A DNA stretch of 64,000 nt from an uncultured Solirubrobacterales bacterium (GTDB lineage Bacteria; Actinomycetota; Thermoleophilia; Solirubrobacterales; Solirubrobacteraceae). A program made the position numbers and the translations under genes. The DNA is taken from contig CAVYDM010000006.1 in assembly GCA_963767255.1 (NCBI GenBank), forward strand, positions 796 through 64,795. Direction: 5' to 3'. Of the stretch, positions 19,828 through 37,536 are shown piece after piece (position 1 is the first letter of the stretch; each line of letters begins with the position of its first letter). Under the pieces are notes generated by a model. That model was not told the DNA's origin and searched no databases. It saw nothing but the letters and a program-made list of their open reading frames with translations.

Positions 19828-22152
19828 TTGACACCCGATGAGACCGGACAAGAAAGCGAGCCAGGAGCGGTGAAGCCGACGGGCGACGGTCGGCGATCCA
19901 GGGAGGGCCGTGGGTCCGGCGCTGCCGCGGCCGAGCGCTCGGTCCTGAGCCCGCGCGGCGAGCAGTTCGAGGTCCTCGGTCGCGCCGGCCCTGTCGAGCT
20001 CCGGGGGGCCCCGGAGATACCGGCCGAGGCGCGTGAGGAGCTGCTCGTGATCAAGGACGGCGAGCTCTTCCTGTGCGCACGCACCGACGGCGACGTCGCC
20101 GCACCGCGGGTCTCGGGCGAGGGCTTTTACGCCCACGACACGCGCTACCTGTCGGAGATCCGCTTCGAGATTGGGGGCGCCGCACCGGTTGCGCTCTCCT
20201 ACGCGGCGGTCGACGATCGCGCGATCGTCGACTCGACGAACGCCAACCTGGCGCGCGGGACGCGGGCGCCCGTGCCGCAGCAGTCCTTGAGCATCAGCCG
20301 CGAGCTGATGATCGCCTCCGGCCGCCTGTACTACCTCGTGCGCGTGCTCAACTTCCTGCGCGAGCCGGTCACGACGAGCGTCTCGCTCGCTCTCGCCGCG
20401 GACTTCGCCGACATCTTCGAGGTGCGTGGCGGTCCGCGCAGAAAGGCGCGCGGCCATGTGCTCGCTCCCAAGCAGCTCGAGCGCGGGCTGGCGCTGGCCT
20501 ACGTCGGCGAGGACGAGATGTTCCGTGAGGCGGTCATCGAGCTCGACCCGCAGCCCGCCCAGGTTGAGCTGGACGCGGACCGCGTGCGGGTGCACTGGCT
20601 GCTGACGCTCGAGCCTGGGGCGCCGGTGACGGTGCTGATGACGGCCGAGCCCTCGATCGGCGGTCACCGGCGTTCGCGACGGCGTATCGAGACGGCGATG
20701 GCAGAGCTCGAGCAGCAGAGATCGGAATGGGAGTCACGCTGCACGCGCATCGTCAGCGACAACGAGCTGTTCGGTGGTTTGATCGCGACGTCGAATCGCG
20801 ATCTGCGGGCGCTGGTCATGCCCGCACCGGGCGGGCAGATCGTCTCCGCGGGGATTCCCTGGTATGTCGCGCCGTTTGGGCGCGACGCGCTCGTGACAGC
20901 CAGCGAGGCCCTGCTGCTGAATCCCGACGTGGCGCGCGATGCGCTCGGCGTCTTGGCCAAGCTCCAGGCGAGCGCCGACGACCCTTGGCGCGATGCCGAG
21001 CCGGGCAAGATCATGCATGAGTTGCGCGTCGGCGAGCTGGCGCGGACAGGGATCGTCCCGCACACCCCCTACTACGGCACCGTGGACGCGACGCCGCTGT
21101 TTCTGATGTGCGCCGCCGACTACTACGCCTGGACGGGCGACCTGCAGACGCTGCGCACGCTGCGTCCCGCGCTCGACGCGGCGCTGCGCTGGATCGACGA
21201 GTTCGGCGACCGCGACGGCGACGGGTTCATCGAGTACGAGCGCCGCTCACCCGCGGGTCTGGGCAACCAGGGCTGGAAGGACTCCCACGACTCGGTGGTT
21301 CACGCCGACGGCAGCCTCGCCGAGGGTCCGATCGCGCTCGTCGAGGCGCAGGGCTATGTCTATCGCGCCAAGCTCGCGATAGCCGACGTCTATGCCGCGT
21401 TCGGGGCGACGGACACGGAGCTGCGCCTGCGCGGCGAGGCGCAGCACCTGCGCGAAGCGTTCAATGAGGCGTTCTGGAATCCGGAGGAGGGAACGTTTGC
21501 GCTGGCGCTCGACGGACGCAAGCGCCAGGTCGCGAGCGTCACCTCCAACCCCGGCCACTGCCTCTACTGCGGGATCATCGAGCCGGAGAAGGCCGCGGCG
21601 GTGGCTGAGAGGCTGATGGCGCCGGACATGTTCTGCGGGTGGGGCGTGCGGACGCTGTCGAGCGGCTGTCCCGCGTATAACCCCATGAGCTACCACAACG
21701 GCTCGGTATGGCCGCACGACAACGCGATCATCGCCGCGGGCCTGAAGCGCTATGGCCACGACGGCGCTGTCCGGCGTATTGCCGACGCGCTCTTCGACGT
21801 CGCCACGAGCGCGCGCGACTTCCGCCTGCCGGAGCTTTATTGCGGCTTTGACCGCCTCGAGCGCGCGGCGGTCGTCGCCTACCCGGTCGCCTGCATCCCG
21901 CAGGCGTGGGCCGCGGCGGCGCCGTTTCTGCTGTTGCAGACGATGCTCGGCATCTCGCCCGACGCGCCCGGCCGCGAGCTGAGGATCGAGCGCCCGGTGC
22001 TGCCCGACTGGCTGCAGCTGGTCCGGCTGGAGGATCTGCGCGTCGGGCATGCCAGCGTGACGCTCGATTTCAAACGCGACGGTCGCGTCACGAGCTTCGC
22101 GCTGCTCGAGCAGGACGGCGAGCTGGACGTGACACTGGCCGCCGCTCCATGA
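19828..22152 (+). CDS. Amylo-alpha-1,6-glucosidase / glycogen debranching family (GDE_N + GDE_C)
   Basis: AGIPWYVAPFGRD, EPGKIMHE, YYGTVDATPLF, NQGWKDS, YHNGSVWPHDN, PELYCG; start uncertain. Confidence 0.92.
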   Translation: MTPDETGQESEPGAVKPTGDGRRSREGRGSGAAAAERSVLSPRGEQFEVLGRAGPVELRGAPEIPAEAREELLVIKDGELFLCARTDGDVAAPRVSGEGFYAHDTRYLSEIRFEIGGAAPVALSYAAVDDRAIVDSTNANLARGTRAPVPQQSLSISRELMIASGRLYYLVRVLNFLREPVTTSVSLALAADFADIFEVRGGPRRKARGHVLAPKQLERGLALAYVGEDEMFREAVIELDPQPAQVELDADRVRVHWLLTLEPGAPVTVLMTAEPSIGGHRRSRRRIETAMAELEQQRSEWESRCTRIVSDNELFGGLIATSNRDLRALVMPAPGGQIVSAGIPWYVAPFGRDALVTASEALLLNPDVARDALGVLAKLQASADDPWRDAEPGKIMHELRVGELARTGIVPHTPYYGTVDATPLFLMCAADYYAWTGDLQTLRTLRPALDAALRWIDEFGDRDGDGFIEYERRSPAGLGNQGWKDSHDSVVHADGSLAEGPIALVEAQGYVYRAKLAIADVYAAFGATDTELRLRGEAQHLREAFNEAFWNPEEGTFALALDGRKRQVASVTSNPGHCLYCGIIEPEKAAAVAERLMAPDMFCGWGVRTLSSGCPAYNPMSYHNGSVWPHDNAIIAAGLKRYGHDGAVRRIADALFDVATSARDFRLPELYCGFDRLERAAVVAYPVACIPQAWAAAAPFLLLQTMLGISPDAPGRELRIERPVLPDWLQLVRLEDLRVGHASVTLDFKRDGRVTSFALLEQDGELDVTLAAAP

Positions 22153-25100
22153 ACGACGTCCCTGCGCTGCCTGACGAGCTCGACAGGCGCTTTGAGGCGC
22201 TGATCTTCGACTGGGATGGCACGGCGGTTCCCGACCGCGCAACCGATGCCAGCGACCTTCGCGCTGCCGTTGAGAGCGCCTGCCTGCTCGGCCTCGATCT
22301 GGCTGTGGTCAGCGGCACCCATGTGGGCAACATCGACGGCCAGCTCTGCGCGCGCCCGCACGGGCCCGGCGAGCTTCATCTGCTGCTCAACCGAGGCTCG
22401 GAGGTGTTCCGCGCCACCGCAGAGGGCGTCGAGCTCCTCGCGCGGCGCACGGCCTCCGAGGCGCAGGATCGCGCGCTCGACCGGGCGGCGGCGCTCACGG
22501 TGCAGCGCCTCGGCGCGCATGGCCTGGAGGCGAGGATCGTCTCGCAGCGGCTCAACCGCCGCAAGATCGACCTGATCCCGACCCCGGAGTGGGCCGAACC
22601 CCCGAAGGCCCGCATCGCCGAGCTGCTGGCCGCCGTTCAGGCGCGTCTACGCGAGCACGCACTGGATGGCCTGCCTGCGGCGGTCGAGCTGGGCCGGGCA
22701 GCAGCCGCCGAGGCCGGGCTCTCGGACGCGTGCGTGACGAGCGACGCCAAGCACATCGAGATCGGCCTCACCGACAAGTCCGACTCCGCCCGCTGGTGCT
22801 TCGAGCATCTGTGGCTGCGTGGCATCGCTGCGGAGCAGGTGTTGATCGTGGGCGATGAGCTGGGAGCTCTCGGCGGCCTTCGGGGCAGCGACTCGATGCT
22901 GCTGATCGACGACGCCGCCGGCGCCACCGTGGCGTCGGTGGGTGTCGAGCCGGCCGGTGTGCCGGACGGCGTGCTCGCGCTCGGCGGTGGTCCGGCCGCG
23001 TTCGTCCGGTTGCTGCACCGGCAGCTCTCGCTGCGCCGTCGCGGCGCTTTGCCGATCGTCTCATCCGATCCCCGCTGGACGCTTCGCATAGAGGGCGTCG
23101 AGCACGAGCGCGAGCGTGCACGCGAGTCGCTGCTGACGCTGGCCGATGGCCGCCTCGGGACCCGCGGCAGCGTGCTTGTGCCACATGGCGGCTCGACCCC
23201 GGCGGTCCTGATGGCAGGTATCTACCGCGGCCACGGTGAGATTTCCGAGCTGCAGCCGGCGCCGCTGTGGAACCGCTTCGCTCCGCTCTCACCCGACCCT
23301 TCCGGTGGCCTGCAGCATCGCGTCCTCGACCTGCATGCCGGCGTGCTCCGCCAGGAGGTCTCGGGCGAGATGCAGGCGCTGCAGTTCTCTTCACTGGCCG
23401 AGCCCGGACTCGCGGTGTTGCGCACACTTGCGCCACGAGCGACGCTCGAGGGCAGCCCGCCGCTCGTTTCACCGCCGCACGTGCATGCCGAGCGTCTCGA
23501 GGACGGCGCGGTGATCCGCATTGCCGTTGCAACCGGCGTGCTCGAAGCGGCCGCGGTGCAGTCGATCTCCGGGCAGGGCCAGGAGGCGGCGCTCGAGCGC
23601 GTCGCGGCCTACGTGGCAACGACCGCCGGAGACTCGAGCAAGCCGGCGCTGCGACGCGCGCGCCGGGCCATCAAGGCCGGGCGCGAGCGGCTGCTCAGCG
23701 ATCATCGTCGTGCCTGGGCTGGGCGCTGGGATACCGCCGACGTGCGGATAGACGGCGATCCGCAGCTGCAGCTCGGCGTGCGCGTGGCCCTGTTTCACCT
23801 GATGGCCTGTGCCGGGGACCAGGGCGAGGCGGCTGTCGGGGCGCGCGGTCTGAGCGGCCGCGGGTATCGCGGGCATGTCTTCTGGGACAGCGACGTGTTC
23901 GTGCTGCCGTTCCTCGCCGCCACCCATCCGCCGGCCGCGAGGGCGATCCTCGAGTACCGCATCCGGCGTCTGCCCGCAGCCCAAGCGGCCGCACGCGCAG
24001 CCGGCCGCGCCGGCGCTCGCTTCGCCTGGGAGTCGGCCGCGAGCGGCGAGGATGTCACGCCACGCGCTGCGCGCGACCGTGCCGGGCGGAGGGTGGCGAT
24101 CTACACAGGCCAGCGTGAGGAGCACATCGTCGCCGATGTCGCCTGGGCGGCCGGCTGTTACATCGACTGGACCGGCGACCGCGCGTTTCGCGAGGGGCCG
24201 GGTGGGCGACTGTTCGTCGAGACGGCCCGCTACTGGGCCTCGCGCGCGGAACGCGACAGCGATGGGAGCGCTCACATTCGCGGCGTGATCGGACCAGACG
24301 AGTATCACGAGCTCGTCGATGACAACGCCTACACGAACGTGATGGCGCGCTGGAACCTGCGCCGCGCCTTCGCGGAGACCACCGACGCCGTCCTCGACCG
24401 GGCCGAGCGAGCGGCCTGGCTCGATCTCGCCGACGCGCTCGTGGACGGCTATCGAGCCGAGAGCGGCCTGTACGAGCAGTTCGCCGGCTTCTTCGAGCTG
24501 GAGCCGCTGGTCATCTCCGAGATCGCACCGCGGCGTCCGATCGCCGCCGACCTGCTGCTCTCGCCCGAGCGGGTGCACCGGGCACAGGTCGTCAAGCAGG
24601 CCGACGTGCTGATGCTCCATCACCTCCTGCCCGATGAGGTCCAGGCGGGGTCGCTCGCGGCAAACCTCGCCTTCTACGAGCCGCGAACCGCCCATGCGAG
24701 CAGCCTCTCGCCCGGCGTTCACGCCGCGCTGTTCGCCCGCGCCGGCAGGCTCGCGCAGGCACGGGAATTCCTGGAGCTGGCGACGCGCATCGACCTCGAC
24801 GACGTATCGGGGTCGACCGCCAGCGGCGTGCACATCGCCGCCATGGGGAGCGTCTGGCAAGCGCTGGCGCTCGGCTTCGCAGGAGCCCGCCCGCGCGAGG
24901 GCATGCTCGAACTGGATCCGCGGATCGCGCCGGAGTGGAGCCTGCTGGAGCTGCGGTTGCGCTTCCGGGCGGCGCAGCTGAAGGTGGGGGTGAGCGCTGA
25001 CGCGGTCGAGGTGAGCAGCGACCGCCCCACGCTCCTCAGCGTCGCCGGCGCCGATCCGGTGATCGTCGGGCCCGGCGGTGCGCGCTTCCAACGGGCGTGA
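22149..25100 (+). CDS. HAD-phosphatase + glycoside hydrolase family 65 fusion
   Basis: N-terminal IFDWDGT; GH65 ARGLSGRGYRGHVFWD, GPDEYHE..DDNAYTN, KQADVLML, SSLSP; ATGA overlap with the upstream stop. Confidence 0.9.
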   Translation: MNDVPALPDELDRRFEALIFDWDGTAVPDRATDASDLRAAVESACLLGLDLAVVSGTHVGNIDGQLCARPHGPGELHLLLNRGSEVFRATAEGVELLARRTASEAQDRALDRAAALTVQRLGAHGLEARIVSQRLNRRKIDLIPTPEWAEPPKARIAELLAAVQARLREHALDGLPAAVELGRAAAAEAGLSDACVTSDAKHIEIGLTDKSDSARWCFEHLWLRGIAAEQVLIVGDELGALGGLRGSDSMLLIDDAAGATVASVGVEPAGVPDGVLALGGGPAAFVRLLHRQLSLRRRGALPIVSSDPRWTLRIEGVEHERERARESLLTLADGRLGTRGSVLVPHGGSTPAVLMAGIYRGHGEISELQPAPLWNRFAPLSPDPSGGLQHRVLDLHAGVLRQEVSGEMQALQFSSLAEPGLAVLRTLAPRATLEGSPPLVSPPHVHAERLEDGAVIRIAVATGVLEAAAVQSISGQGQEAALERVAAYVATTAGDSSKPALRRARRAIKAGRERLLSDHRRAWAGRWDTADVRIDGDPQLQLGVRVALFHLMACAGDQGEAAVGARGLSGRGYRGHVFWDSDVFVLPFLAATHPPAARAILEYRIRRLPAAQAAARAAGRAGARFAWESAASGEDVTPRAARDRAGRRVAIYTGQREEHIVADVAWAAGCYIDWTGDRAFREGPGGRLFVETARYWASRAERDSDGSAHIRGVIGPDEYHELVDDNAYTNVMARWNLRRAFAETTDAVLDRAERAAWLDLADALVDGYRAESGLYEQFAGFFELEPLVISEIAPRRPIAADLLLSPERVHRAQVVKQADVLMLHHLLPDEVQAGSLAANLAFYEPRTAHASSLSPGVHAALFARAGRLAQAREFLELATRIDLDDVSGSTASGVHIAAMGSVWQALALGFAGARPREGMLELDPRIAPEWSLLELRLRFRAAQLKVGVSADAVEVSSDRPTLLSVAGADPVIVGPGGARFQRA

Positions 25101-25227
25101 GCTTCGGCCGGCACCGCGCCCGTCGGCAGGTGCCCCGCGATCGCGCTCGACCAGTAGTAGACCGCAGCCCCGATCAGCACATGCTGCCGATGCGCCGAGC
25201 GTCGGCTGCGGCGAACATTGTCCCGTG

Positions 25228-26649
25228 ATGGAGCGTGACGATCTCGTGACAGCGCTTGAGGACGTGTGGGGAGCCCATGCGAGCGCGGCGACGTTCGAGC
25301 TCCCGCGGGATCGTGGAACGGACAAGATTCGCTTCGCCGATCGCCACGATGCGGGGCGCCGGCTCGCGGCGCTGCTCGGCGATTTCCGTTACGAGAACCC
25401 GGTCGTGGTGGGCATGGCGCGTGACGGGATGCCGGTGGCGGCCGAGGTCGCGCGCGCGTTGCAGGCGCCGCTGGAGGCCGTCGTGGTGCGCAAGATCGCA
25501 GCGCCCAAGACGCCCGAGCGCTCGCTCGGAGCGCTCGCCGAGGGAGACATCGAGGTCATCGACGACGAGCTCGTGCGCCGGCTTGGACTGAGCGCCGTCG
25601 AGCTCGGAGCGATCGTGACGCGCGCGCGCCGCGAGCTGGCCGAGCGACTGGCCCGCTATTACGCCAAGCGCCCGCGGCTGGGGCTTGCCGGACGGACGGT
25701 GCTGCTCATCGACGACGGCCTCGCGAGCGGTCAAAGCGCACAGGCGGCCGCACGCTCGCTGCGCAAGCGCGGCGCGACTCGCGTGATTCTGGCGACACCG
25801 GTCGCCGCCGCCGCGTCTGCCCACGAGCTGGACGAGTGGGTCGATGACGTGGTTTGTGTCGAGATGCCCAAGCGTCTGTGGGGGATCGGACGCTGGTATC
25901 AGGACTTCAGGTCGACCTCCGACGAAGAGGTGGCGGCGCTGCTGTCCGAGCATGCCGGCGCTGTCGCGCGTGAGGTGACGATCGAGGCGGCGCCCGGCGT
26001 CGTGCTGAGCGGCGATCTGACGGTGCCGTGGGGCGCATATGGACGCGGGGTGGTGGCATTCGCACACGGCTCCGGGTCGAGCCGGCTGAGCCCGCGCAAC
26101 CGGATGGTCGCGCGGGCGCTCAACCAGGCGGGTTTCGCGACGCTGCTGCTCGACCTGCTGACCCCGCGCGAGGAGGTCGATCGCAGGAACGTGTTCGACA
26201 TTCCGCTGCTCGCGCGGCGGCTCGTGGCGGCGACGCACTGGCTGCGTCGCCAGCCCGAAACGGCTCAGCTGGCGCTCGGTTACTTCGGCGCCAGCACCGG
26301 CTCGGCGGCCGCGCTGCTCGCCGCGGCAGAGCTGCGCTCGGGCGTCTGCGCGGTCGTCTCACGCGGCGGGCGCCCCGATCTGGCGCAGGCGCGATTGGGG
26401 GAGGTGGTGGCGCCGGTGCTGTTGATCGTCGGTGGCGCCGATGAGGCCGTGCTCGAGCTCAATCGCGAGGCACAGCGGCGCCTGTGCTGTGAGAACGAGC
26501 TCGTCGTGGTCAAAGGCGCGACGCATCTCTTCGAGGAGCCCGGCGCGCTCGAGCATGTCGCCCGGCTGGCGACCGACTGGTTTACCCAGCACCTCTGTCA
26601 GGGCGCAGCCACACCCGACGGCGACGCTCGATCGAACGTGAGCGTGTAG
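25228..26649 (+). CDS. Phosphoribosyltransferase + dienelactone-hydrolase fusion
   Basis: FADRHDAGRRLA, LIDDGLASG; FAHGSGSSRLSPRN, YFGASTG, SRGGRPDL, ATHLFEEPG. Confidence 0.9.
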   Translation: MERDDLVTALEDVWGAHASAATFELPRDRGTDKIRFADRHDAGRRLAALLGDFRYENPVVVGMARDGMPVAAEVARALQAPLEAVVVRKIAAPKTPERSLGALAEGDIEVIDDELVRRLGLSAVELGAIVTRARRELAERLARYYAKRPRLGLAGRTVLLIDDGLASGQSAQAAARSLRKRGATRVILATPVAAAASAHELDEWVDDVVCVEMPKRLWGIGRWYQDFRSTSDEEVAALLSEHAGAVAREVTIEAAPGVVLSGDLTVPWGAYGRGVVAFAHGSGSSRLSPRNRMVARALNQAGFATLLLDLLTPREEVDRRNVFDIPLLARRLVAATHWLRRQPETAQLALGYFGASTGSAAALLAAAELRSGVCAVVSRGGRPDLAQARLGEVVAPVLLIVGGADEAVLELNREAQRRLCCENELVVVKGATHLFEEPGALEHVARLATDWFTQHLCQGAATPDGDARSNVSV

Positions 26650-26652
26650 AGG

Positions 26653-26895
26653 ATGTCGCTCGCTTCCCTGCTTCGTTCCGGCCCTCGCTCAGCGCCTCCC
26701 GCGCCGCTTCGCTGCGGCGGCTACGTCACGGATGGCCACAGGCTGTTCCGGGTCGTCTCGCAGTTCGCGACCGTTGGAGATCACATGTTTGCCTCACTCG
26801 AGGATTGCGCCACGCTGGAGGTCCAGGCCTACGCGCCGGGCGAGCTTTACGCCATGGAGTTGCGAGCGGTCCAGGCCATCGCCGAGCGACGCTGA
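26653..26895 (+). CDS. Small hypothetical protein
   Basis: 80 aa in-operon ORF (GGYVTDGHRLFRVV...LEDCATL). Confidence 0.6.
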   Translation: MSLASLLRSGPRSAPPAPLRCGGYVTDGHRLFRVVSQFATVGDHMFASLEDCATLEVQAYAPGELYAMELRAVQAIAERR

Positions 26896-26944
26896 CGAGC
26901 GTGACGAAATTCCCAGCCATCCGGTTTCACGTCGAGCACGCTCG

Positions 26945-27745
26945 ATGAAGGTCATCGCTGCGATCACCGATGACTCCGCGGCGACGGTCGTGCTGGCGAG
27001 CGCCGGCGCCATCGCCGGCCTGTTTGCCGCGGACGTCGAGGCGCTGCATGCGGGTGAGGCCGACCCGGCGGTGGCGCTGGCGGCGCAGCAGGCAGGGGTG
27101 ACTCTGCGGGCGGTCGCCGGGCGGGCGGTCGAGGCGATCGCCGACGCGGCCGCAGCCGAGGACGTCGCCGTGGTGGTGATCGGAACGCGAGGCACCGCCG
27201 CTGGCGATGGGCCGGCCGGCTGCACGGCCATGGCTCTGGTCACGCTGTTGGACAAGCCGGTCGTGGTCGTGCCCCCGGGCGCGCCGGTCGTGCATCGGAT
27301 CGACAGCGTGCTCGTGCCACTGGATGGAACCGCCGCGAGCACGGCGGCGCTGCAGGAGATCGTGGAGCTGGCCGCAAGCGCCGAGCTCCAGATCGTCGTG
27401 GCACACGTATACGAGGAGCGATCGTTGCCGGCGTTCAGCGATCACCTGCCGCACGAGGTGCGTGCGTGGCGAGAGGAGTTCATCGCCCGCCACTGTCCAA
27501 CGGTGGAGGACGCAAGCCTCGAGTTGCGTGTGGGCGAGCCCCGCGAGCACCTGCTCGACATCCTTCGTGTGAGCCGCTGCAAGCTGGTGGCGCTCGGCTG
27601 GAGTCAGAACCTGACGGGCGGTCATGCCGCGGTGGTGCGCCAGATGCTCGCAGAGTCACCCGTGCCGGTGCTGCTCATGCCCGCAAGCCGCAAGACAGCA
27701 CGACCACGCCTGCATCGGCGTCTCTCCAGCACGAGCCTACGGTGA
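26945..27745 (+). CDS. Universal stress protein, two USP domains
   Basis: VVVIGTRG, KPVVVVP, VLVPLDGT, SPVPVLLMP. Confidence 0.85.
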   Translation: MKVIAAITDDSAATVVLASAGAIAGLFAADVEALHAGEADPAVALAAQQAGVTLRAVAGRAVEAIADAAAAEDVAVVVIGTRGTAAGDGPAGCTAMALVTLLDKPVVVVPPGAPVVHRIDSVLVPLDGTAASTAALQEIVELAASAELQIVVAHVYEERSLPAFSDHLPHEVRAWREEFIARHCPTVEDASLELRVGEPREHLLDILRVSRCKLVALGWSQNLTGGHAAVVRQMLAESPVPVLLMPASRKTARPRLHRRLSSTSLR

Positions 27746-27796
27746 TCGAGCAGCCTGCGTTCGAAGCGCTGGTAGGCACAGGCAGGCGAGCGTGGA

Positions 27797-29158
27797 TCAG
27801 AGCGCTGTGGGGTAGGTCTCGGGTGGCTCCCCGAGCTCCCAGGCGCCGGTCCGCTCCAGCGGCTCCACCGCGCGGGTGACGTCTATGTGCAGGAGCGCAT
27901 CGAACTGCTGTGAGGCGCACGCGGCGAACCAGTGGCTCTGGCGTTCGGTCTGCGGTCGGTAGATGACGCCGATCGCACGCTGCAGTCGCGGCTCGCGCAG
28001 AGCGCGCCCACTGGCGCTCGTGCCCAGCGGGCACAGCAGGAAGGCCGGGATCTCCGTGGCGTGCAGGAGCGCCTCGTAGCTGTCGGGCAACGCCGGTCGG
28101 ACGCGCTTGCGCTCGGCCTCCGCGCCCCACTCAGAGGCGGCCGTGACCGTGCCGCTGTAGGTGCTGAAGCCCACCAGCACCACGTCGTTGCCGTGGCGCT
28201 CGCGCATCAGCTGCCCCACGTTCAGCTCGCCGCGCTGGGCCATCTCGGTCGAGCGGGCATCGCCCACATGCGAGTTGTGCTCCCACACGACGATCTTGCC
28301 GGCGTCCCCATGGCGAGCCAGGTGTATCTGGAGCTGGTCCAGGGTGTCGGCCATGTGCCGGTCGCGCAGGTTCCACGACGAGGCGGGGCCGGCGAACATC
28401 GTGCGGTAGTACTCCTCCGCGTTGGCCACCACGGAGGCGTTCTGCTCGGCCAGGAAGTATCTGTCCTCGGCCACTGGACCGTCCTCGCGCAGATAGTCGC
28501 CGGCGTGACGTCGCAGCTCGACCAGCTGCTCCAGCACGCGCCGGCGGCACGGCTCGCTGACGCCGAGCAGCACCGCCTGCCCGTAACCCGCGCTGTCCGC
28601 GGAGAAGGGGTGCAGACACTCGTAGCGAAGGCGCGCCCGCGCGGCGCCGGGCGGGTCCACCTCATCCAGATAGGCGACGACAGCCTCCATCGAGGCGCCC
28701 AGGCTGTAGAGGTCCAGGCCGTAGAAGCCCACGCTTACTCGCGCGGGCGCAAGCCGTTCGTTGTGGGCGCGCAGCCACCCGACGAAGTCCAGCACCTCGG
28801 CGTTGCGCCACATCCAGGTCGGGAACCGCCGAAAGCCGCGCAGGGCCTCCTCGGCGTCGGCGTCATCGCCGAAACCCTGCACGTAGCGGCTGACGCGGTC
28901 GGCGTCTGGCCAGTCGCCCTCGACGGCCACGGCCGCGAAGCCGAGCTCCTCGATCAGCCTGCGGGTGATCCGTGCGCGCTCGCGGTAGAACTCGTGAGTG
29001 CCGTGGCTGGCCTCGCCGAGCAATATGAGCCGCGCGTCCCCTACCCGATCCAGCAGCGCGTCATGGTCAGACGCAGCGCCCTCCAGCGGATGCGCATCCA
29101 GGCGCACCGCCTCGAGGGCCGCGCTTTCACCGACGGGGAGGGTCAGCTGCGAGGCCAC
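27797..29158 (-). CDS. Erythromycin esterase-family protein
   Basis: LLGEASHGTHEFY, AVEGDWPD, FPTWMWRN, WNLRDRHM, VWEHNSHVGDAR. Confidence 0.92.
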   Translation of the reverse strand: MASQLTLPVGESAALEAVRLDAHPLEGAASDHDALLDRVGDARLILLGEASHGTHEFYRERARITRRLIEELGFAAVAVEGDWPDADRVSRYVQGFGDDADAEEALRGFRRFPTWMWRNAEVLDFVGWLRAHNERLAPARVSVGFYGLDLYSLGASMEAVVAYLDEVDPPGAARARLRYECLHPFSADSAGYGQAVLLGVSEPCRRRVLEQLVELRRHAGDYLREDGPVAEDRYFLAEQNASVVANAEEYYRTMFAGPASSWNLRDRHMADTLDQLQIHLARHGDAGKIVVWEHNSHVGDARSTEMAQRGELNVGQLMRERHGNDVVLVGFSTYSGTVTAASEWGAEAERKRVRPALPDSYEALLHATEIPAFLLCPLGTSASGRALREPRLQRAIGVIYRPQTERQSHWFAACASQQFDALLHIDVTRAVEPLERTGAWELGEPPETYPTAL

Positions 29159-29161
29159 GGC

Positions 29162-29896
29162 TCACCTCGTCCCCGACAGCGCCTCACCGGTGCTCTTTCC
29201 CGGCGTGTCCGCCGGCGTGCCCGGCTTGGGCTCTTGCGTGGGCGATGCCGGAGCGCTCTCGCCCTCGCCGGCTTCGGCCAGCAGCGCTATCACCTGCTCG
29301 TCTGGCACTGGTGCGAAGTCGCGGTACCACATACCCACTCCGAACAGGCGTGAGGGCACCTCCAGGCAGACGACGCGGTCGGCCTCCTTGGCGAGCATCG
29401 ACACTGCCTCGCTGGAACCCACCGGCACCGCGACGACGATGTGGCGGGCGCCTCGCTTGCGCACCGCGCGGACAGCGGCGAGGTCCGTCAGGCCGGTCGC
29501 CAGGCCGTCATCGACGATGATCACCGTTCGACCGACCAGGGAAACCGATGGCCGGTCGTCGCGATAGCGCTCCACTCGGCGGCGCAGCTCCTGCGACTCC
29601 AGCGCGAGCGTCGTCTCGAACGCGGCTTGGGTCATGCCGAGCATGGCGGCCGAATATGGGTCGAGGACGCCCGTGCCATCCTCCGCGACCGCACCTACGC
29701 CCAGCTCGGGGTTGCCGGGGGCTCCCAGCTTGCGTACCGCGAGGATGTCCAGCGGCGCGTGGAGCGCACGGGCGACCTCGAATGCGACCGGTACGCCGCC
29801 ACGCGGCAGAGCGACGATCACCGGCCGCTCCTGCGCGAAAGACTCCAGCTCGGTTGCCAGCCGACGACCGGCGTCGTGGCGATCGAGAAACTCCAT
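29162..29896 (-). CDS. Phosphoribosyltransferase-family protein
   Basis: FLDRHDAGRRLA, ALPRGGVPVA, IVDDGLATG. Confidence 0.92.
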   Translation of the reverse strand: MEFLDRHDAGRRLATELESFAQERPVIVALPRGGVPVAFEVARALHAPLDILAVRKLGAPGNPELGVGAVAEDGTGVLDPYSAAMLGMTQAAFETTLALESQELRRRVERYRDDRPSVSLVGRTVIIVDDGLATGLTDLAAVRAVRKRGARHIVVAVPVGSSEAVSMLAKEADRVVCLEVPSRLFGVGMWYRDFAPVPDEQVIALLAEAGEGESAPASPTQEPKPGTPADTPGKSTGEALSGTR

Positions 29897-30064
29897 ACGG
29901 GAATCGTCCCCCCTCCGGGCGCCCGGCGCGTCCGGGAGATGTCCGCTAACCGACGCGGCGGACTACTGAAGTCGATTCGCTCACGCCACTCTCAGCATGG
30001 TGCCGTCATGGTTGTTGCGGCCAATCGCGGATGCCGATGGCCAGCAGGCCCGCGTTGGCGGGCG

Positions 30065-30621
30065 ATGGTGTGCGCGATGACCAGGCTGCTTGGCCCAGCC
30101 CGTCCTCAAGCCGGTGGCCAGGCTGCGACGGCGGCGAGGTCGGCGGTCGGCCGCTCCTCCTCTATCTGAGATCTCCGGGCGCCAGATCGTCGCGGCGACC
30201 GCTGTCCCCGCCCAGCCCGGGGTGGTGTGCTCGTGCGCGCGCCCGGATCGGCGCTCTCGGAGCGGGGCGCGGCCTGGTGGCGCGCGTGGCCGGGGACGTG
30301 GCCTCCCAGGGCGCGATCTCGCGGGTGCTCAGCGTCCTCGACGCGCGGCGGCCGAGCGGGCTGGTCTCGCGGGATGGCCGCGCGACGGTCGTGCTGGGCT
30401 ACATCGGCGCACACGCCTCCGAACGCGCCGCGACGGCGGCGGCGCGGCAGATCGCGCAGGACCTGCGTGGCGTCCCCGGCGTGACGGTCGGCGGCGACCA
30501 GCTCACGTTCAGCCAGCTGGAAGACACGATCTCCGATCAGCTGCCGAAGGTCGAGCTGAACTCCTGGGCGCACCCGGCCGACGCCGTCCGCGAGCGCGTC
30601 TCGGCGGCGCATCATCGCTGA
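30065..30621 (+). pseudogene. Degraded MMPL/RND transporter N-terminal fragment
   Basis: LVSRDGRATVVLG...GVTVGGDQLTFSQLEDTISDQLPKVEL, then loss of similarity and no TM block. Confidence 0.55.
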
Positions 30622-30699
30622 CGGTAGGCTGCCGGGGGCCCGATGCCCGGGACCGGTAGTGCAACACCCGACACGGAGATTGACCACGGAGATTGACCA

Positions 30700-31047
30700 A
30701 TGAGTGAGACGAGCACGCCCGAGCCGGCCTACCACCTCTTCCTCGACCCAGACGAGGCGCCCATACTCACCCTCGCGCTGAACCTCTTCATCTCCGACGA
30801 GGCCCACGAGCAGCAGATCCGTGGGCTGGCGCGCGAGATCCTCGCCTGCCTGCAACAACAACCCCCCGGTGACGCGGGCACGCTCACGGTCACGCTCACC
30901 CCCCAGCAGATGAAGATCGCTCACGGCGCCTTACGGTTGATGCTCAACGACTCCCAGCGCGGACAGGTCGCGGAGCGTGAGCACCTGCACAACATCCTGA
31001 ACAAGCTCCCCGACGAGCACACCATGCGCGCGATCGAGCTGGAGTAG
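30700..31047 (+). CDS. Hypothetical helical protein with an internal two-fold repeat
   Basis: RBS GGAG; halves ALNLFISDEAHEQQIRGLAREIL / ALRLMLNDSQRGQVAEREHLHNIL. Confidence 0.75.
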   Translation: MSETSTPEPAYHLFLDPDEAPILTLALNLFISDEAHEQQIRGLAREILACLQQQPPGDAGTLTVTLTPQQMKIAHGALRLMLNDSQRGQVAEREHLHNILNKLPDEHTMRAIELE

Positions 31048-31074
31048 CGGCTTCATCGAGCTGACGATGTGCCT

Positions 31075-31216
31075 TGGCGGCGCATGCGCCGCCAGGCGGG
31101 GACGCACGTGTGCGTCCCCGAGACTGCTCGCATGCGAGCAGTCTTCCGGTGGGCACATGTGCCCACCGGCGGGCCCGCACATGTGCGGGCCCGAGCCCCG
31201 CCGCATGCGGCGGGGC
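31075..31216. repeat. Array of six abutting palindromes with 24-25 bp periodicity
   Basis: Units 31075-94, 31097-120, 31121-44, 31146-69, 31170-93, 31195-216. Confidence 0.95.
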
Positions 31217-31265
31217 CACAAACGGCGCACGCACAATGGGCGCATGCGACGACCAGGCGGCAAGC

Positions 31266-32867
31266 CTACGCCCCACGCCTGTCCACCGCGCGCGCGATCT
31301 CCGCGACCTGCGCGTCCAGGGACCGCGTGGTGTCGAGCCGCAGCACCTCACCGGCTGAGAGCTCGTCGAGCTCCTCGAACGCCAGAGATTGATCCCTCGC
31401 GATCTGCGGTGTCGCGTCGGAGATGCGCCGTGGGTCGTGCAGACGCCGCGCGGCGCGCTCGAGCGCAACCTCGAGCGGGAGATCGCAGCGAACCACCAGA
31501 CGCGTCATGCCGACCCGTCGCAGCCTGTCCAGCAGCAGCGCGCGATCCTCGCGCGAGCGGCAGGTCGCGTCCACGATCACACCGTCGCAGCGGCGAAGCT
31601 CGAGCAGCGCGTCGCGGCCGAGCTGCTCGTAGGTGGCGCGCGTGAACCGAGCGCTGTAGTGCTCGGCGCGCGCCTGCTCGTGCTCGTGGACTCCGGCCAA
31701 TCGCTTGCGCACGGCGTCCGATGAGACGACCGGCATCTCCGAGCGTCGTGAGAGCTCGGCGGCCAGCGTCGACTTGCCGCTGGCGGCGGGCCCGCAGATG
31801 ACGATCGCCAGGGGCGTGCGGGCGCGCCAGCACAGCCGCTCGCTCAGCGACCACAGCCGTTGCGCCTGCTCTGAATGCTCGCTGGCTGCGCCGGTCTTTG
31901 CGCTGGCGTGCTCGGCCGCGGCGATCAGCTCCACCTTGGCGCGCACGAGCGCCCAGTGGGCGGCGTAGAACGAGCGCAGCGCCTCGCCGCCGGGGCTGAT
32001 GCCCGCATGGCGGTAGGCGTGGATGAGCTCGCGGGCCGCCCAGCGCTGCCCGCGAGCCTCCAGATCCATCGCTAAGAACGCCAGATCGCAGGCGACGTCG
32101 GTGCGGCGCAGCTCGGGGTCGAACTCGATGCGATCGATCACGCGGACGGTCGATCCGGCCAGCACGTGCTCGCAGCGCAGGTCTCCGTGTCCGTCGCGCG
32201 CGAGTCCCAGCAGCGCGCGCCGGCGCAGCTGCAGTGAGTGCCTCTTGACGAACGTCTCGCCGAACGCGGCGGGGACGTCCACGGGCCATCCGCGCGGATG
32301 GCCCGTGCCTTCGAGCTCTTCGACGTTCCGGCGCCAGACGGCGAGCACCCGGTCTGGACCCCAATCGGCGACGATGGCCGCGGAGCGGTGAAAGTCCGCA
32401 AGCAGGCGGGCCACCGCGACGACGTGCGCTGCAGTGAGAGCGCCCGAGGCGATCAGACCGGCGAAGGTGTCCTTTTCGCTGAAGCTGCGCATCTCCACGG
32501 CATGCTCGACCGCGCCCGGGGCGCCATCGCGGCCCAGGCGAAAGCCGGTCGGGCTCCCGGGGCTCCTGAGGATCGCGCGCACGCCGAGATAGATCCCGGG
32601 GGCGAGCGCCCGGTTGACGCGCACCTCCTCACGGCAGGCGCTGTGCCGGCGTGCCGGCGTGCTGTAGTCCAGGAAGCCCAGCGACACGGGCTTCTTGATC
32701 TTGTACGCGCGATCGCCCGCCACGAACACCCACGAGGCGTGCGTCTCGTGCACGGTCACCCGGGGCTGGCCCTCATACATGGCGGGCGCGGCGAGGGCCC
32801 GCAACACGTCGGGATCGCCGCGGTGCTCCCCGCTGGAGACGATCTGCGTGGGGGACGAGCTCAGCAT
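31266..32867 (-). CDS. Aminoglycoside-phosphotransferase-like kinase + AAA_33 P-loop fusion (Rv2004c-like)
   Basis: ETHASWVF, YKIKKPVSLGFLDYST, DGHGDLRCEH, DLAFLAMDL; CGPAASGKST, SSDAVRK, SDAT. Confidence 0.9.
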   Translation of the reverse strand: MLSSSPTQIVSSGEHRGDPDVLRALAAPAMYEGQPRVTVHETHASWVFVAGDRAYKIKKPVSLGFLDYSTPARRHSACREEVRVNRALAPGIYLGVRAILRSPGSPTGFRLGRDGAPGAVEHAVEMRSFSEKDTFAGLIASGALTAAHVVAVARLLADFHRSAAIVADWGPDRVLAVWRRNVEELEGTGHPRGWPVDVPAAFGETFVKRHSLQLRRRALLGLARDGHGDLRCEHVLAGSTVRVIDRIEFDPELRRTDVACDLAFLAMDLEARGQRWAARELIHAYRHAGISPGGEALRSFYAAHWALVRAKVELIAAAEHASAKTGAASEHSEQAQRLWSLSERLCWRARTPLAIVICGPAASGKSTLAAELSRRSEMPVVSSDAVRKRLAGVHEHEQARAEHYSARFTRATYEQLGRDALLELRRCDGVIVDATCRSREDRALLLDRLRRVGMTRLVVRCDLPLEVALERAARRLHDPRRISDATPQIARDQSLAFEELDELSAGEVLRLDTTRSLDAQVAEIARAVDRRGA

Positions 32868-32936
32868 CGCCTTTCTCTCTCGCCACGCGCCGGGCGTCTG
32901 AGGATTACCGGCCGCGGCCCGGAGTGACGGCTGCGA

Positions 32937-33794
32937 TCACGCCGGTATCGCGCCCGGCGGCGTGCCGTTGGTCGTATGGGCCTCGGCGCTCGCGCCATCG
33001 GGCGCAGGAGCTGCGCTTGCGCCTGCGCCACCGTCGCCCACCGCCGCGATCAGTGGTCCGATCAGGTCGATCGGCAAGGGAAAGACGATCGTGGAGTTCT
33101 GCTCGCTGCCGATCTCCAGCAGCGTCTGCAGGTAGCGCAATTGAATCGTGACGGGATTGCGGCTGATCACATCGGCCGCCTCGCCGAGCTTGGCGGCGGC
33201 CTGGGCCTCGCCCTCGGCGTTGATGATCTTCGCGCGGCGCTCGCGCTCGGCCTCGGCCTGCCGCGCGATCGCGTGCTGCATGTCCGGGGGGATCTCCACG
33301 TCCTTGATCTCCACCGCCGTCACCTTGATGCCCCACGGCTCGGTCTGGTCGTCGATGATTTTTTGCAGGTCTTCGTTCAGGCGCTCGCGCTCGGCGAGCA
33401 GCGTGTCGAGCTCAGCCTTGCCGAGCACCGAGCGCAGCGTCGTCTGGGCGATCTGCGAGGTCGCCGCGAGGACGTCTTCGACCTCGACGACCGAACGGTT
33501 GGGATCGACGACGTGGAAGTAGGTGACCGCGGTCACGCGCGCCGGCACGTTGTCGCGGGTGATCACCTCCTGGGGCGGGATCTGCTGCGTGACCGTGCGC
33601 AGGCTGACGCGCACCATCCGGTCGATGAACGGGATCAGCAGCACGACGCCCGGTCCCTGCTGGTCGAGCAAGCGCCCGAGGCGGAACACGACGCCACGCT
33701 CGTACTCGCGCAGGATGCGCACCGACGCCGAGGCGAGGATCAAGCCGAGCGCCAGCAGCACGACGAGGACGACGATGATGACCGTGACGATCAT
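32937..33794 (-). CDS. SPFH/band 7 (slipin) protein
   Basis: [43 protein letters not shown]. Confidence 0.95.
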
Positions 33795-34261
33795 GGACTC
33801 AGCTCCCATTCCTCGGCCTCGCGCACGCACAAGGTCAAGCCGTTGACACGTTCGACGACGACACGCTCGCCGTCCCGCAACTCAGCTTCGTGATGAACCG
33901 GACTCGGCTCGGCTCGCCACAGCGACCCGTCGAGGAAGACCTGCGCCTCGGGGCCCTCACCGCAGCGAACGACGCCGACATGGCCGACGAGCGCCTCCCT
34001 GCCGGTGCGTGGACGCAGCCTCAGCGGGCTCAGGATCCGGCGCCTGGCGAGCACCAGCAACGACATCGACGCCGCCGCGGCACACAGCGCAACGATCAGC
34101 ACGATCGCCGCGCTCGCGCCGGCGGCCAGCAGCAACAGTGCCACGCCGGCGATGGCGGCGACGCCCGCACACATGCCGATCAGCCCGCCGGTCAACAGGT
34201 GCGCCTCGGCCAGCAGCAACACCACGGCCATCACGAGCAGGACCAGGCCGAGAGCGGTCAT
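33791..34261 (-). CDS. NfeD-family membrane protein
   Basis: TM helices plus TGREALVG...[10 protein letters not shown]...VNGLTL; coupled to the SPFH gene. Confidence 0.9.
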
Positions 34262-34485
34262 GATCTGAGTGCGGGGTCAGCGCTGTTCATCGCCCTGCGA
34301 ACGTAGCGCCCACGAGGCCGACCGCCATCGGGCGATTCCCCGCCGGCGACTGCGGATAACTACGTTCATCGCTTCGTTGATCGCCGGCCGGCGTCCGATC
34401 GGCGGGAATCGACGCGTATGCCCAAACACGAGCAAAGAGCAGAGCGCAACGGCTCAGTCCACAGCGGCACCCGGCAACATCGGCG

Positions 34486-35217
34486 ATGCTTCGCGATGTG
34501 ATCGACCTGCACTGCCACATCCTGCCCGGGCTCGACGATGGCGCGCTCGATCTCGAGGACAGCCTGGCGATGGCCGGCCAGGCCGAGCAGGACGGCATCG
34601 CGGTCGTGTGCGCGACGCCTCATATTCGCCACGATCACAACGTGCGCATCGAGGAGATCGCCGCGCGCGTGGACTCGCTGCAGGCCAGCCTGGACGCTCA
34701 TGAGCTCGGCGTTCGGGTTCTCCCCGGCGGAGAGCTGGCCCAGACGCAGGCCGACAGCCTGAGCGACGCCCAGCTGCATGCGGTGGCGCTCGGCGGGAGC
34801 GGAGGGTGGATCCTGCTGGAGCCGGCCCCCGGGCCGCTGGGCGATGGCCTGGACGAGCTGGCCGGGCGACTCGCGCGGCGCGGGCTCAGGAGCGTCATCG
34901 CACATCCCGAGCGTCACGCGGGCGCGGACTTCTCCGAGCGCCTTGCGCGACTCGCCGGCGAGGGCTGCCTGATCCAGTGGACGGCCGAGTTCATCGCCGA
35001 AGCCGAGCCTGGGGGGTTCGTGATGGAGCTGGCGCGGGAGGGGCTGGTGCACCTGCTCGGCAGCGACGCTCACACCTCGCGCGCGGGCCGTCCCGTCGCC
35101 CTGGCGGCGGGATACGCACGTCTGGCAGAGGTGCGCACCTCCGAGCAGATCGCGTGGTCGGCCCAGGTTGCGCCGCGGGCGATCGTGCACGGCGATCCCG
35201 TCATCGCGTGTCCATGA
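34486..35217 (+). CDS. CpsB/CapC-type PHP protein-tyrosine phosphatase
   Basis: IDLHCHILPGLDDG, ATPH, IAHPER, GSDAH. Confidence 0.92.
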   Translation: MLRDVIDLHCHILPGLDDGALDLEDSLAMAGQAEQDGIAVVCATPHIRHDHNVRIEEIAARVDSLQASLDAHELGVRVLPGGELAQTQADSLSDAQLHAVALGGSGGWILLEPAPGPLGDGLDELAGRLARRGLRSVIAHPERHAGADFSERLARLAGEGCLIQWTAEFIAEAEPGGFVMELAREGLVHLLGSDAHTSRAGRPVALAAGYARLAEVRTSEQIAWSAQVAPRAIVHGDPVIACP

Positions 35218-35256
35218 AGATCTCCGTCGGCGATCGCAACCTCGCCCGCGCGATCC

Positions 35257-36267
35257 TCACCCTCGATGCTCACTCTCACTCTCTCGCTCGGTATCCGTGA
35301 TCGGCTCCAGGACGACGCTGTCCACGAGTCGCTCCACGACCTCGCGGGAGGCGCTGCCCAGCCCGTGACGCAAGAAGTTGGCCGCACCCGCGGCGGCGCC
35401 GATCTTTAGCGCCCGCTCCAGGGACTCGCCCCGCGCCCACGTGGCAGCGAGAGCGCCGAACATCGCATCGCCACACCCCTCGCGATAGCCGCGCGTCAGA
35501 CGCGGCGGCGTCAGCCACAACGCTCGCTCGTCTCTGGCGAGCACGAGCGCGGGCTGCTCGCCACGTGTCACGATCACCGCGCCGGCGCCCTGCTCGCACA
35601 GTCGCTGAGCCGCGTCGCGCAGCTGTCCGGGCTCAGACACGGGACCGCACACGAACTGGGCCAGCTCCCAGTCGTTCAGTTTCACCAGATCCGGTTCCCC
35701 ACGCAGCGCGCTGTTCAGACGTGGCGCTGAGAGATCGACCAGCGTGCGGCATCCTCCGGTGCGCGCGTCGGCGATCAGATCGCCATAGATCTCCAGCGGC
35801 AGCGCATCGCCGGGCATCGGGTTGGTGATCAGCAGCCAGCCGTCGGCGATCGCCTCGGCGCAGGTGATCGAGAACAGCTCGTCGAGCTCGTGGCGCGACG
35901 GTGGATCGCTGAGCGCGCAGGTGAGCAGCTCACGCTCGCCGGAGCGGCGGTCGGTCACATAGCAGCCGCTCGCGGACGTGGTGGACACCACGCGCCGCTC
36001 GCCGCCGACCCGCTGCAGCAGGCCGTCCAGCAGCTCGCCGCTCTCTCCTCCGAGAAACCCGCACAGCACCGGCTCCGCTCCCAGGCACGCGGCCATGCGC
36101 GCCACCCACACTCCCTGTCCACCGGGATGGAAGTGAACCTGCTCACGCTCCGATCCCTCACGCTCGAGCGTGACCGTGAGCAGCGGGTGGGGCGCGAAGA
36201 TCGCGACGCGCGGTGCGACCGACGGGGCGTCGGCGTCGGGCGCCGCTGGGCCAAATTGCTCGATCAT
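35257..36267 (-). CDS. PfkB / 1-phosphofructokinase-family sugar kinase
   Basis: PGGQGVWVAR, LVKLNDWEL, GCGDAMFGALA. Confidence 0.88.
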   Translation of the reverse strand: MIEQFGPAAPDADAPSVAPRVAIFAPHPLLTVTLEREGSEREQVHFHPGGQGVWVARMAACLGAEPVLCGFLGGESGELLDGLLQRVGGERRVVSTTSASGCYVTDRRSGERELLTCALSDPPSRHELDELFSITCAEAIADGWLLITNPMPGDALPLEIYGDLIADARTGGCRTLVDLSAPRLNSALRGEPDLVKLNDWELAQFVCGPVSEPGQLRDAAQRLCEQGAGAVIVTRGEQPALVLARDERALWLTPPRLTRGYREGCGDAMFGALAATWARGESLERALKIGAAAGAANFLRHGLGSASREVVERLVDSVVLEPITDTERESESEHRG

Positions 36268-36320
36268 CGTAGATGCATCCTTGCGCGTATCCACTGGGCG
36301 CGGCTGGCTAAGGTGCAGCT

Positions 36321-37536
36321 GTGGCACTCATCCAAGCAAGTCGCCCGCTCAGCCGAGCACTGCGCGAGACGCTCCCGGAGCGGCCATTTCACGTGCGCTT
36401 CTGGGACGGCGGATACGTCGAGGCGACGAGCTCGGGGGCGCCGAGTTTCTTCGTCAGGCGCCCGTCGGCCATGTCGCAGTTCCTGCGCTCGCCGGGGACG
36501 CTCGGTCTCGGGCGTGCGTATGTGGAGGGCTCGCTGGACGTCAACGATCTCGACGCGGCGTTCATCGTGGTCGACGAATGGGAGCCGCCACGGCTGAGTC
36601 TCGCCGACCGGGCGCGGCTGGGGTTGGCGGTCGCCGTGGCCGCGCTGCCGGGCGGGCTGCCTCATCGCCCGAGCCTCGAGCTGATCCTGCGTGGCGAGCG
36701 TCACACGCCAGAGCGCGACGCCGCCGCGATCCGCTACCACTACGACGTCGGCAACGAGTTCTTCGGCCTCTTCCTCGACGAGTCGATGACCTACAGCTGC
36801 GCGATCTACTCCCGGGGCGCCCAGACGCTCGAGGAGGCCCAGCGCACGAAGCTCGACCTCGTCGCGAGCAAGCTCGAGCTGAAGCCCGGCATGGCGCTGC
36901 TGGACGTCGGCTGCGGATGGGGCAGCTTCGCGATCCACGCGGCGCAGAACTACGGCGTCACGGTCACCGGCCTCACCCTCTCGCCCTCGCAGGCCGAGCT
37001 TGCGCGTGAGAAGGTCGCGGCGGCGGGGTGCGGCGAGCGGGTGGAGATCCGCGTGGCCGACTATCGCGAGCTGCCGGGAGGATCGTATGACGCGATCGCG
37101 TCGATCGGCATGTCCGAGCATGTCGGCGAGAGTCAGATCGACCCTTACGCGGCGTCGCTGTACGCGCTGTTGCGCCCCGGCGGTGTGCTGCTTGAACCAC
37201 GCGATCGCGGCGCTCGATCCCGAGTACGAGTCGCTCGACGACGAGTTCTCGATGCGCTACGTGTTCCCGGACGGAGAGGCTTTGGCGCTCTCCCGGGTCC
37301 AGCTCGCGCTGGAACGCGCCGGCCTGCGCATCGACCATGTGGAGGGGTTCAGAGAGGACTACGCACAGACCCTGCGTGAGTGGACCAAGCGACTGGACGA
37401 GCACCTGGAGCGGGCCGAGCAGCTGGCGGGCGTGCAGCGCACACGTATCTGGCGGCTCTATCTGCGCGCCGCCAGGCATGGCTTTGACACGAGCATCACC
37501 GCCGTCTACCAGATCCGCGCGCGCAGGCCTGCCTGA
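36321..37536 (+). CDS. cfa: Cyclopropane-fatty-acyl-phospholipid synthase family (+1 frameshift near 37192)
   Basis: HYDVGNEFF, MTYSCA, LDVGCGWG, SIGMSEHVG; continues in another frame as LNHAI...YVFPDGE...RIWRLYL. Confidence 0.88.

Follow-up and report, generated by a model that had tools for sequence, protein, structure and literature searches.

An apparently undescribed family of dispersed, self-symmetrising palindromic repeats in soil Solirubrobacteraceae

Introduction

Here I describe what is apparently an undescribed, self-symmetrising kind of dispersed bacterial palindromic repeat, represented by six abutting palindromes in the window, which is the whole 64,000-nucleotide stretch of DNA analysed from an uncultured Solirubrobacterales bacterium (GCA_963767255.1, contig CAVYDM010000006.1). 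The reading I prefer, held with confidence and doubt in about equal measure, is that of a non-autonomous REP/MITE-like repeat that acts and restores its own symmetry at the level of DNA, and that was inserted at gene ends, probably by an enzyme acting in trans. Such repeats are a natural experiment on palindrome evolution, in which about 1000 units change sequence yet stay paired; their rate of change, beyond what stepwise compensation allows, makes arm-to-arm copying in bacteria directly accessible and bears on a long-standing question, namely how REP-like repeats keep their symmetry, and copies that lie in frame write repeated peptides into housekeeping proteins. Throughout, G000 is the genome holding the window, G230 is an array-free relative, and g1, g12, g15 and g26 are genera, the genus sample of 120 genomes being g1.

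The array in the window

All six palindromes lie where an earlier note on this DNA had placed them, with centres 24, 24, 25, 24 and 24 bp apart. That note had called their arms unrelated, which is wrong, since the arms fall into three position classes common to arrays genome-wide, and on the minus strand the window array reads D-B-A-D-B-A. The features are listed below, with the module score taken from a model built from 55 modules of relatives and compared with 20000 random places.

30700..31047, plus strand: host open reading frame of 115 aa, of no Pfam family, whose stop codon adjoins the element; not part of the element
31048..31072, plus strand: A-end terminal module, decayed (6.5 bits on the inner-module score, p=0.0008)
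31073..31096, no strand: unit 1, class A, perfect over 31075-31094 with 10-bp arms
31097..31120, no strand: unit 2, class B, 11-bp arms and one central G.T mismatch
31121..31144, no strand: unit 3, in a D-like position, perfect 12-bp arms, with a presumed place in the D-B-A order
31146..31169, no strand: unit 4, class A, perfect 12-bp arms
31170..31193, no strand: unit 5, class B, perfect 12-bp arms
31195..31216, no strand: unit 6, class D, perfect 11-bp arms
31217..31250, minus strand: flank of the D end, in which a lone core lies at 31241-31248; possibly a decayed module
31266..32867, minus strand: host gene of 533 aa with a C-terminal AAA_33 kinase-type domain, convergent on the element

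A weak hairpin at 31054-69 and a lone CGCATGCG at 31241-48 had also been pointed out, and both are present. The hairpin is really part of the decayed terminal module (p=0.0008); the lone core, 39 nt from the last centre, sits at the distance where intact modules begin, as in five other D ends, although its module scores are not significant (p=0.16 and 0.40). When folded, the window array forms stacked hairpins with z-scores of -8.6 as DNA and -7.5 as RNA (0 of 200 shuffles as good). The 115-aa reading frame has homologs in relatives, where they stand in other contexts with no array beside them; more generally, array neighbours are unrelated housekeeping genes that differ from copy to copy, so the array is no device belonging to the window's convergent gene pair. 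Window positions 21906-36327 hold glycoside hydrolase 65, two phosphoribosyltransferase-like, universal stress, erythromycin-esterase-like, AAA_33, SPFH/NfeD and PfkB genes, a cluster mostly without a close match in the fetched part of G230.

A family of polar arrays

A scan of G000 that allowed any palindrome centre and counted chains of three or more phased units returned 33 chains, all centred on CATG; two of them, at C12:19245 and C26:2879, lie on overlapping contig ends and are one array counted twice in the assembly, leaving 32 distinct arrays of 3-7 abutting units of 22-24 bp. CATG is the centre of 154 of the 156 units, nearly always inside YRCATGYR, and these units have 143 distinct ten-base arms, which pair at 98-100% out to 11 bp, at 81% at 12 bp and at 6% at 13 bp, while 78 of the 124 steps between units measure 24 bp and 123 of them 23-26 bp. 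Chains of at least three units were absent from five of five first-order Markov resamples of G000 and from 2.226 Mb of the array-free G230; single or double units were not found in G000, where CATG itself is not avoided (observed/expected 1.02). The observation is confirmed as real, non-random and not local, and I agree with the earlier judgements that plain tandem duplication cannot explain the array and that a dispersed REP-like family is at hand.

Across 175 arrays (760 units) the two ends differ and the arm classes run D-(D)-B-A, often repeated, with 108 transitions from D to B, 118 from B to A and 13 from B to D. A terminal module of the form RCATGCTT-(A/T run)-AAGCTGAT, in which the A/T run varies in length, sits inverted at both ends of 10 elements of 175-249 bp, one of them in G000, and an arm-like half unit (arm plus core) stands outside the terminal modules; the G000 element folds as a closed five-hairpin junction (z -10.1). 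The strict module pattern occurs in 9 of the 120 g1 genomes, all array-rich with at least 78 two-core matches each, and every one of its 21 matches in that sample adjoins an array or a contig end. In G000 the inner module is kept at p<0.01 at 14 of 64 array ends, and 50 of the 64 carry no recognisable module. Element ends both open with a self-complementary RCATGY, readable as repeat or as duplication, the empty sites being very diverged. The arrays are not the only dispersed palindromes: a second, small one (module E), whose loop has three bases, is joined to some of them and elsewhere stands alone, with 9 copies in G000 (C17:125, C3:35734, C18:38165, C2:15757 and C20:32625 among them) and 10 in G230, where it occupies a site at which G000 has an array.

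Distribution and site history

To judge from genome sequences, the family is restricted to a few soil Solirubrobacteraceae genera, at about 30 copies per genome. A search pattern of three cores found matches in 28 of 89 Solirubrobacteraceae genomes (g1 13/15, g12 8/23, g15 6/7 and g26 1/4, the g26 match not being palindromic) and in none of 211 genomes from the order's five other families, and 400 other genomes of the phylum sample gave one match, also non-palindromic. Among at least 80 titled loci from a species collection, 69 belong to Solirubrobacterales or Solirubrobacteraceae and 2 to unnamed actinomycetes, all of these palindromic, and 9 of those listed come from other taxa and have no palindromic units. 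Inside one genus array copy number runs from none to about 50, and two-core matches range from 2 to 244 per g1 genome (control 0-18; 120 genomes). Viral contigs gave 18 motif matches and no array, and the arms, for which kinship with phage or plasmid sequence had been considered, matched none of 50,697 phage or 72,556 plasmid records by BLAST. With variable parts that are self-complementary arms, no such match and housekeeping genes as neighbours, the array is not CRISPR, as had been said. In three related AT-rich viral contigs (L058-L060), two CATG-centred palindromes stand alone, separated by about 2.7 kb; their arms are similar and they form no array.

Of 129 arrays, 41 lie in convergent gaps, 57 in tandem gaps, 20 in divergent gaps, 7 in frame within genes (one of them, in ftsZ at L117, perhaps a start-site error) and 4 at edges; the 41 of 129 compares with 126 convergent gaps among 865 in the background, and arrays lie a median of 14 nt from a stop codon vs about 60 from a start. 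These 129 arrays form 88 site groups, and many sites are common to several species. Comparison of orthologous regions, which the earlier note had proposed, reveals that units, unit numbers and sometimes polarity differ between species at common sites, both polarities having been seen at one of them. In the fetched part of G230, 14 of the 32 G000 sites are syntenic and all 14 are empty; at one, the stop codons are 1 nt apart vs 138 nt in G000.

An ABC-F linker (G000 C22:18885-20987; L195-L224) holds 0-5 in-frame units that are intact, decayed or absent, and their presence requires 9 changes on a 31-row tree, vs a mean of 9.8 with shuffled labels (two loci left out); in one close pair, 48 bp between cores have been deleted from one member. 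Decayed ABC-F copies remain as low-complexity linker. Arrays in frame in the ABC-F linker, in leuS and in a desaturase gene encode His-Ala/His-Val repeats every 8 residues. The leuS array of G000 (C24:14216-16809) has four units, and the reading frame is broken just upstream near a G run, probably through a long-read error, the G259 copy being intact with three units.

Arms are no more often identical within genomes (0.40%) than between them (0.45%) in the array-rich clade, so there is no sign of current movement in it, and I infer early spread followed by evolution in place in that sampled clade; in g12 and g15, copies look by eye more uniform within genomes. Sites common across species fit old insertion plus loss equally well.

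How the arms stay symmetric

Mismatches affect 68 of 7600 stem pairs. In RNA stems the substitution pattern is expected to tolerate G-U pairs; here, G-U in the sense strand was counted 3 times vs 5 for A-C and is thus not favoured, and polarity is independent of transcription (29 with, 26 against). Matched orthologous units contain 716 double changes, 364 of them transversions, vs 60 mismatch-involving positions. Nineteen orthologous pairs, chosen for equal unit number, non-independent, two of them without four-fold sites and one maybe misaligned, hold 138 double changes and 15 mismatches in 658 stem pairs, and their divergence is 0.21 in arms vs 0.36 at four-fold sites, i.e., about 0.6 of the four-fold-site rate. 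By a simple calculation, a stepwise model with 1-2% mismatch occupancy reaches only 0.02-0.04 of the neutral rate. The arms therefore change far too fast for stepwise compensation, which argues for one-step arm-to-arm copying, and symmetry is likely to come from copying one arm onto the other in DNA.

A process of this kind is on record, since template switching perfects quasi-palindromes in E. coli, and in the part of that account relevant here an imperfect inverted repeat is perfected in one step and its spacer can invert (PMC7202029). Template switching is nevertheless a mutational process that alone leaves the conserved core, the period and the spacing unexplained. The CATG core is present in 545 of 552 internal units, and transitions make up 49% of changes in arms vs 33% in flanks; with arms evolving more slowly than four-fold sites and transitions enriched, some selection on the arms is indicated. 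In some lineages symmetry has been lost by asymmetric decay, which generic template switching alone does not predict.

On the preferred reading of a non-autonomous, self-symmetrising repeat, copies would have spread in bursts early in each lineage and would now be evolving in place in the sampled clade. A mismatch in a short GC-rich hairpin would provoke polymerase template switching, by which the mutation would be either erased or placed on both arms in one step; units could be lost or gained via slippage between phased cores, and arrays could invert between their own terminal modules. The near-invariant core and fixed arm length suggest that a putative protein reads the extruded hairpin or cruciform, and the same putative protein, or its mark, may keep new copies away from old ones.

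Spacing along the chromosome

The mutual avoidance of copies is real. G000 has 2 gaps under 30 kb vs 8.9 expected (P=0.0006), and five single-contig genomes have 1 gap under 10 kb vs 12.8 expected and 8 under 20 kb vs 24.4, figures of which G322 and G369 alone are individually significant and to which related genomes contribute sites in common. The spacing set is that without two non-palindromic rows (G337 2824.5 kb and G005 126.7 kb), and the G322 positions were sampled with a pattern whose yield in G000 is 25 of the 33 arrays, with 100 of 107 matches listed. Close pairs exist, at 6.2 and 12.3 kb in G000 and 8.6 kb in G322, and loci L083/L084 and L088/L089 are about 4 and 5 kb apart. Target immunity is known for mobile elements, and the avoidance points to either target immunity of a miniature element or a chromosome-organising role.

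Search for a carrier protein

No mobilising gene was found beside the 129 arrays. Neither of the carriers put forward earlier is supported: RAYT/Y1 proteins occur in 4 of 120 g1 genomes, none of them array-rich, and beside none of the 129 arrays, with no PF01797 (Y1) match in G000, a genome that is 82% complete; DUF559 was not found in g1 and g15, the genera richest in arrays (0/8 and 0/9), and gave weak N-terminal matches only, in 4 of the 120 g1 genomes. Its AbiEi-DUF559 form adjoins an array at one site in two g12 genomes and was rejected, 30 other loci examined (L309-L338) having no array. Of 251 Solirubrobacteraceae genomes, 208 carry that single-gene family in several copies (a tally that takes in the unpublished G418, G512 and G533, which are used nowhere else), and many of these copies, which occupy unrelated sites as those of a mobile gene would, have a short hairpin immediately before the start.

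Other candidates fared no better. IS110 has no match in the 82% complete G000. The ImuB cassette was rejected, since the 98 of 120 genomes that have it do not include the richest in arrays (G322 and G396) and do include array-poor ones. A D12-class adenine methylase gave no match in G000 and G003 and is present in the array-free G230, which, together with the unsuppressed frequency of CATG, gives no support to restriction-modification. Proteome subtraction against G230, covering 2.226 of its 2.626 Mb (85%), left 757 of 2092 predicted proteins missing or distant and, by eye, no convincing candidate among the matches listed.

Relation to described repeats

One close likeness is to REP/BIME repeats, which in the relevant parts of two sources are short, GC-rich, extragenic palindromes in regularly spaced clusters near stop codons, sometimes intragenic; there, variant REPs of Stenotrophomonas BIMEs keep pairing, and a CAT(G) centre is found in some REPs of Pseudomonas putida and of Stenotrophomonas (PMC2817692, PMC3733652). 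However, REP/BIME repeats carry a 5' GTAG or CGTC foot tag and the array family carries neither: of 422 array ends, 30 have GTAG within 9 nt (4 in a control interval) and 3 have CGTC, and internal units adjoin so closely that a tag would not fit between them. Whereas REP/BIME repeats have linkers between units, imperfect stems, monomers, hundreds of near-identical copies and a RAYT gene flanked by repeats, the arrays have no linkers or monomers, perfect stems and mostly unique arms, and no such gene was found for them; in addition, REP copies cluster and array copies avoid each other. A match to a described REP/BIME family, raised earlier as a possible objection, thus fails on tag, RAYT and copy identity.

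Similarly, the arrays resemble MITEs and REPINs, as part of one account presents them, in being about 100-250 bp long, non-coding and dispersed, full copies being closed by inverted terminal modules and truncated ones being REP-like, and in being present or absent between relatives (PMC10969869). Unlike MITEs, their modules contain a variable A/T run and their interior is a phased stack of self-correcting palindromes, and neither the target duplication nor the cognate transposase of MITEs was found for them. The Rickettsia palindromic elements, in the same partial account, also place a palindromic repeat in frame in housekeeping proteins, but form single families of about 150 bp, whereas the arrays consist of 24-bp modules whose number varies in frame-preserving steps (PMC10969869). 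The main texts of two inverted-repeat surveys (PMC4060949, PMC13155455) do not mention the group, and a published description of the family was not found in a search of main texts, supplements apart, that took in few subscription journals. For a REP/MITE-like family without the defining tag and transposase, the carrier would have to be a protein of a new kind, either mobilising or structure-reading.

Competing explanations

A bolder form of the preferred reading, which I offer tentatively and as a minority view, is that of a polar, terminally closed multi-cruciform whose dedicated, non-RAYT reader of the 8-bp core would both rewrite one arm on the model of the other and enforce an exclusion of 10-20 kb, giving self-correcting, evenly spaced DNA-structure sites along the chromosome.

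Doubtful, in my opinion, is the explanation that the arrays, whatever their origin, are chromosome-architecture sites maintained by the host as a spaced set of cruciforms, each a platform for a protein of nucleoid, gyrase or other type that reads DNA structure. The over-dispersed spacing would suit it, as would the invariant core, the fixed period, the symmetry at DNA level and the keeping of sites over long times, even in frame in proteins, and E. coli BIMEs are described in part of one source as binding gyrase and IHF (PMC2817692). However, a copy number that runs from none to about 50 in one genus is hard to reconcile with such a duty, ABC-F presence needs as many changes as shuffled labels do, close pairs exist (6.2 kb in G000 and 8.6 kb in G322), and the spacing could instead reflect target immunity or the loss of unstable close pairs.

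It is unlikely that the arrays act as RNA-level hairpin stacks that end or protect transcripts arriving from either direction and are symmetric since both strands are transcribed. The strong bias towards 3' ends and convergent gaps and the very stable RNA fold would be expected of such stacks, but G-U is not tolerated even where one strand is transcribed, half of the double changes are transversions, and the 20 divergent and 7 in-frame arrays stand where termination would harm. No terminator-like site was found in 30600-31500, and Rfam returned 7 weak matches, all well under the gathering score. Given also a polarity independent of transcription, the earlier denial of an ordinary terminator holds, and its alternative of selection for a multi-hairpin RNA is disfavoured.

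The other process suggested by the earlier note, in which a nick at the CATG core and fold-back synthesis on neighbouring DNA would build each unit singly and de novo, is very unlikely. Its attraction lies in the sharp arm limit at 11-12 bp, the 143 distinct arms in 156 units and the half units outside the terminal modules. Against it, arms obey a class consensus and a fixed order, orthologous units are related by descent with few changes, and lone or double units are missing from G000, which together make de novo building improbable.

Finally, although some libraries are known to yield perfect palindromes as an artefact and none of the contigs listed as matching the window crosses the middle of its array, the chance of an assembly or fold-back artefact is negligible, this reading being refuted by the same architecture in dozens of independent assemblies, long-read and short-read, at orthologous sites, in frame and with lineage-specific decay. 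At the window itself, short-read contigs from other runs are identical to the array edges (X3, 30733-31082 and 31183-31377), and a further one (X6, 31183-31534) matches the right edge with a single change, at 31318.
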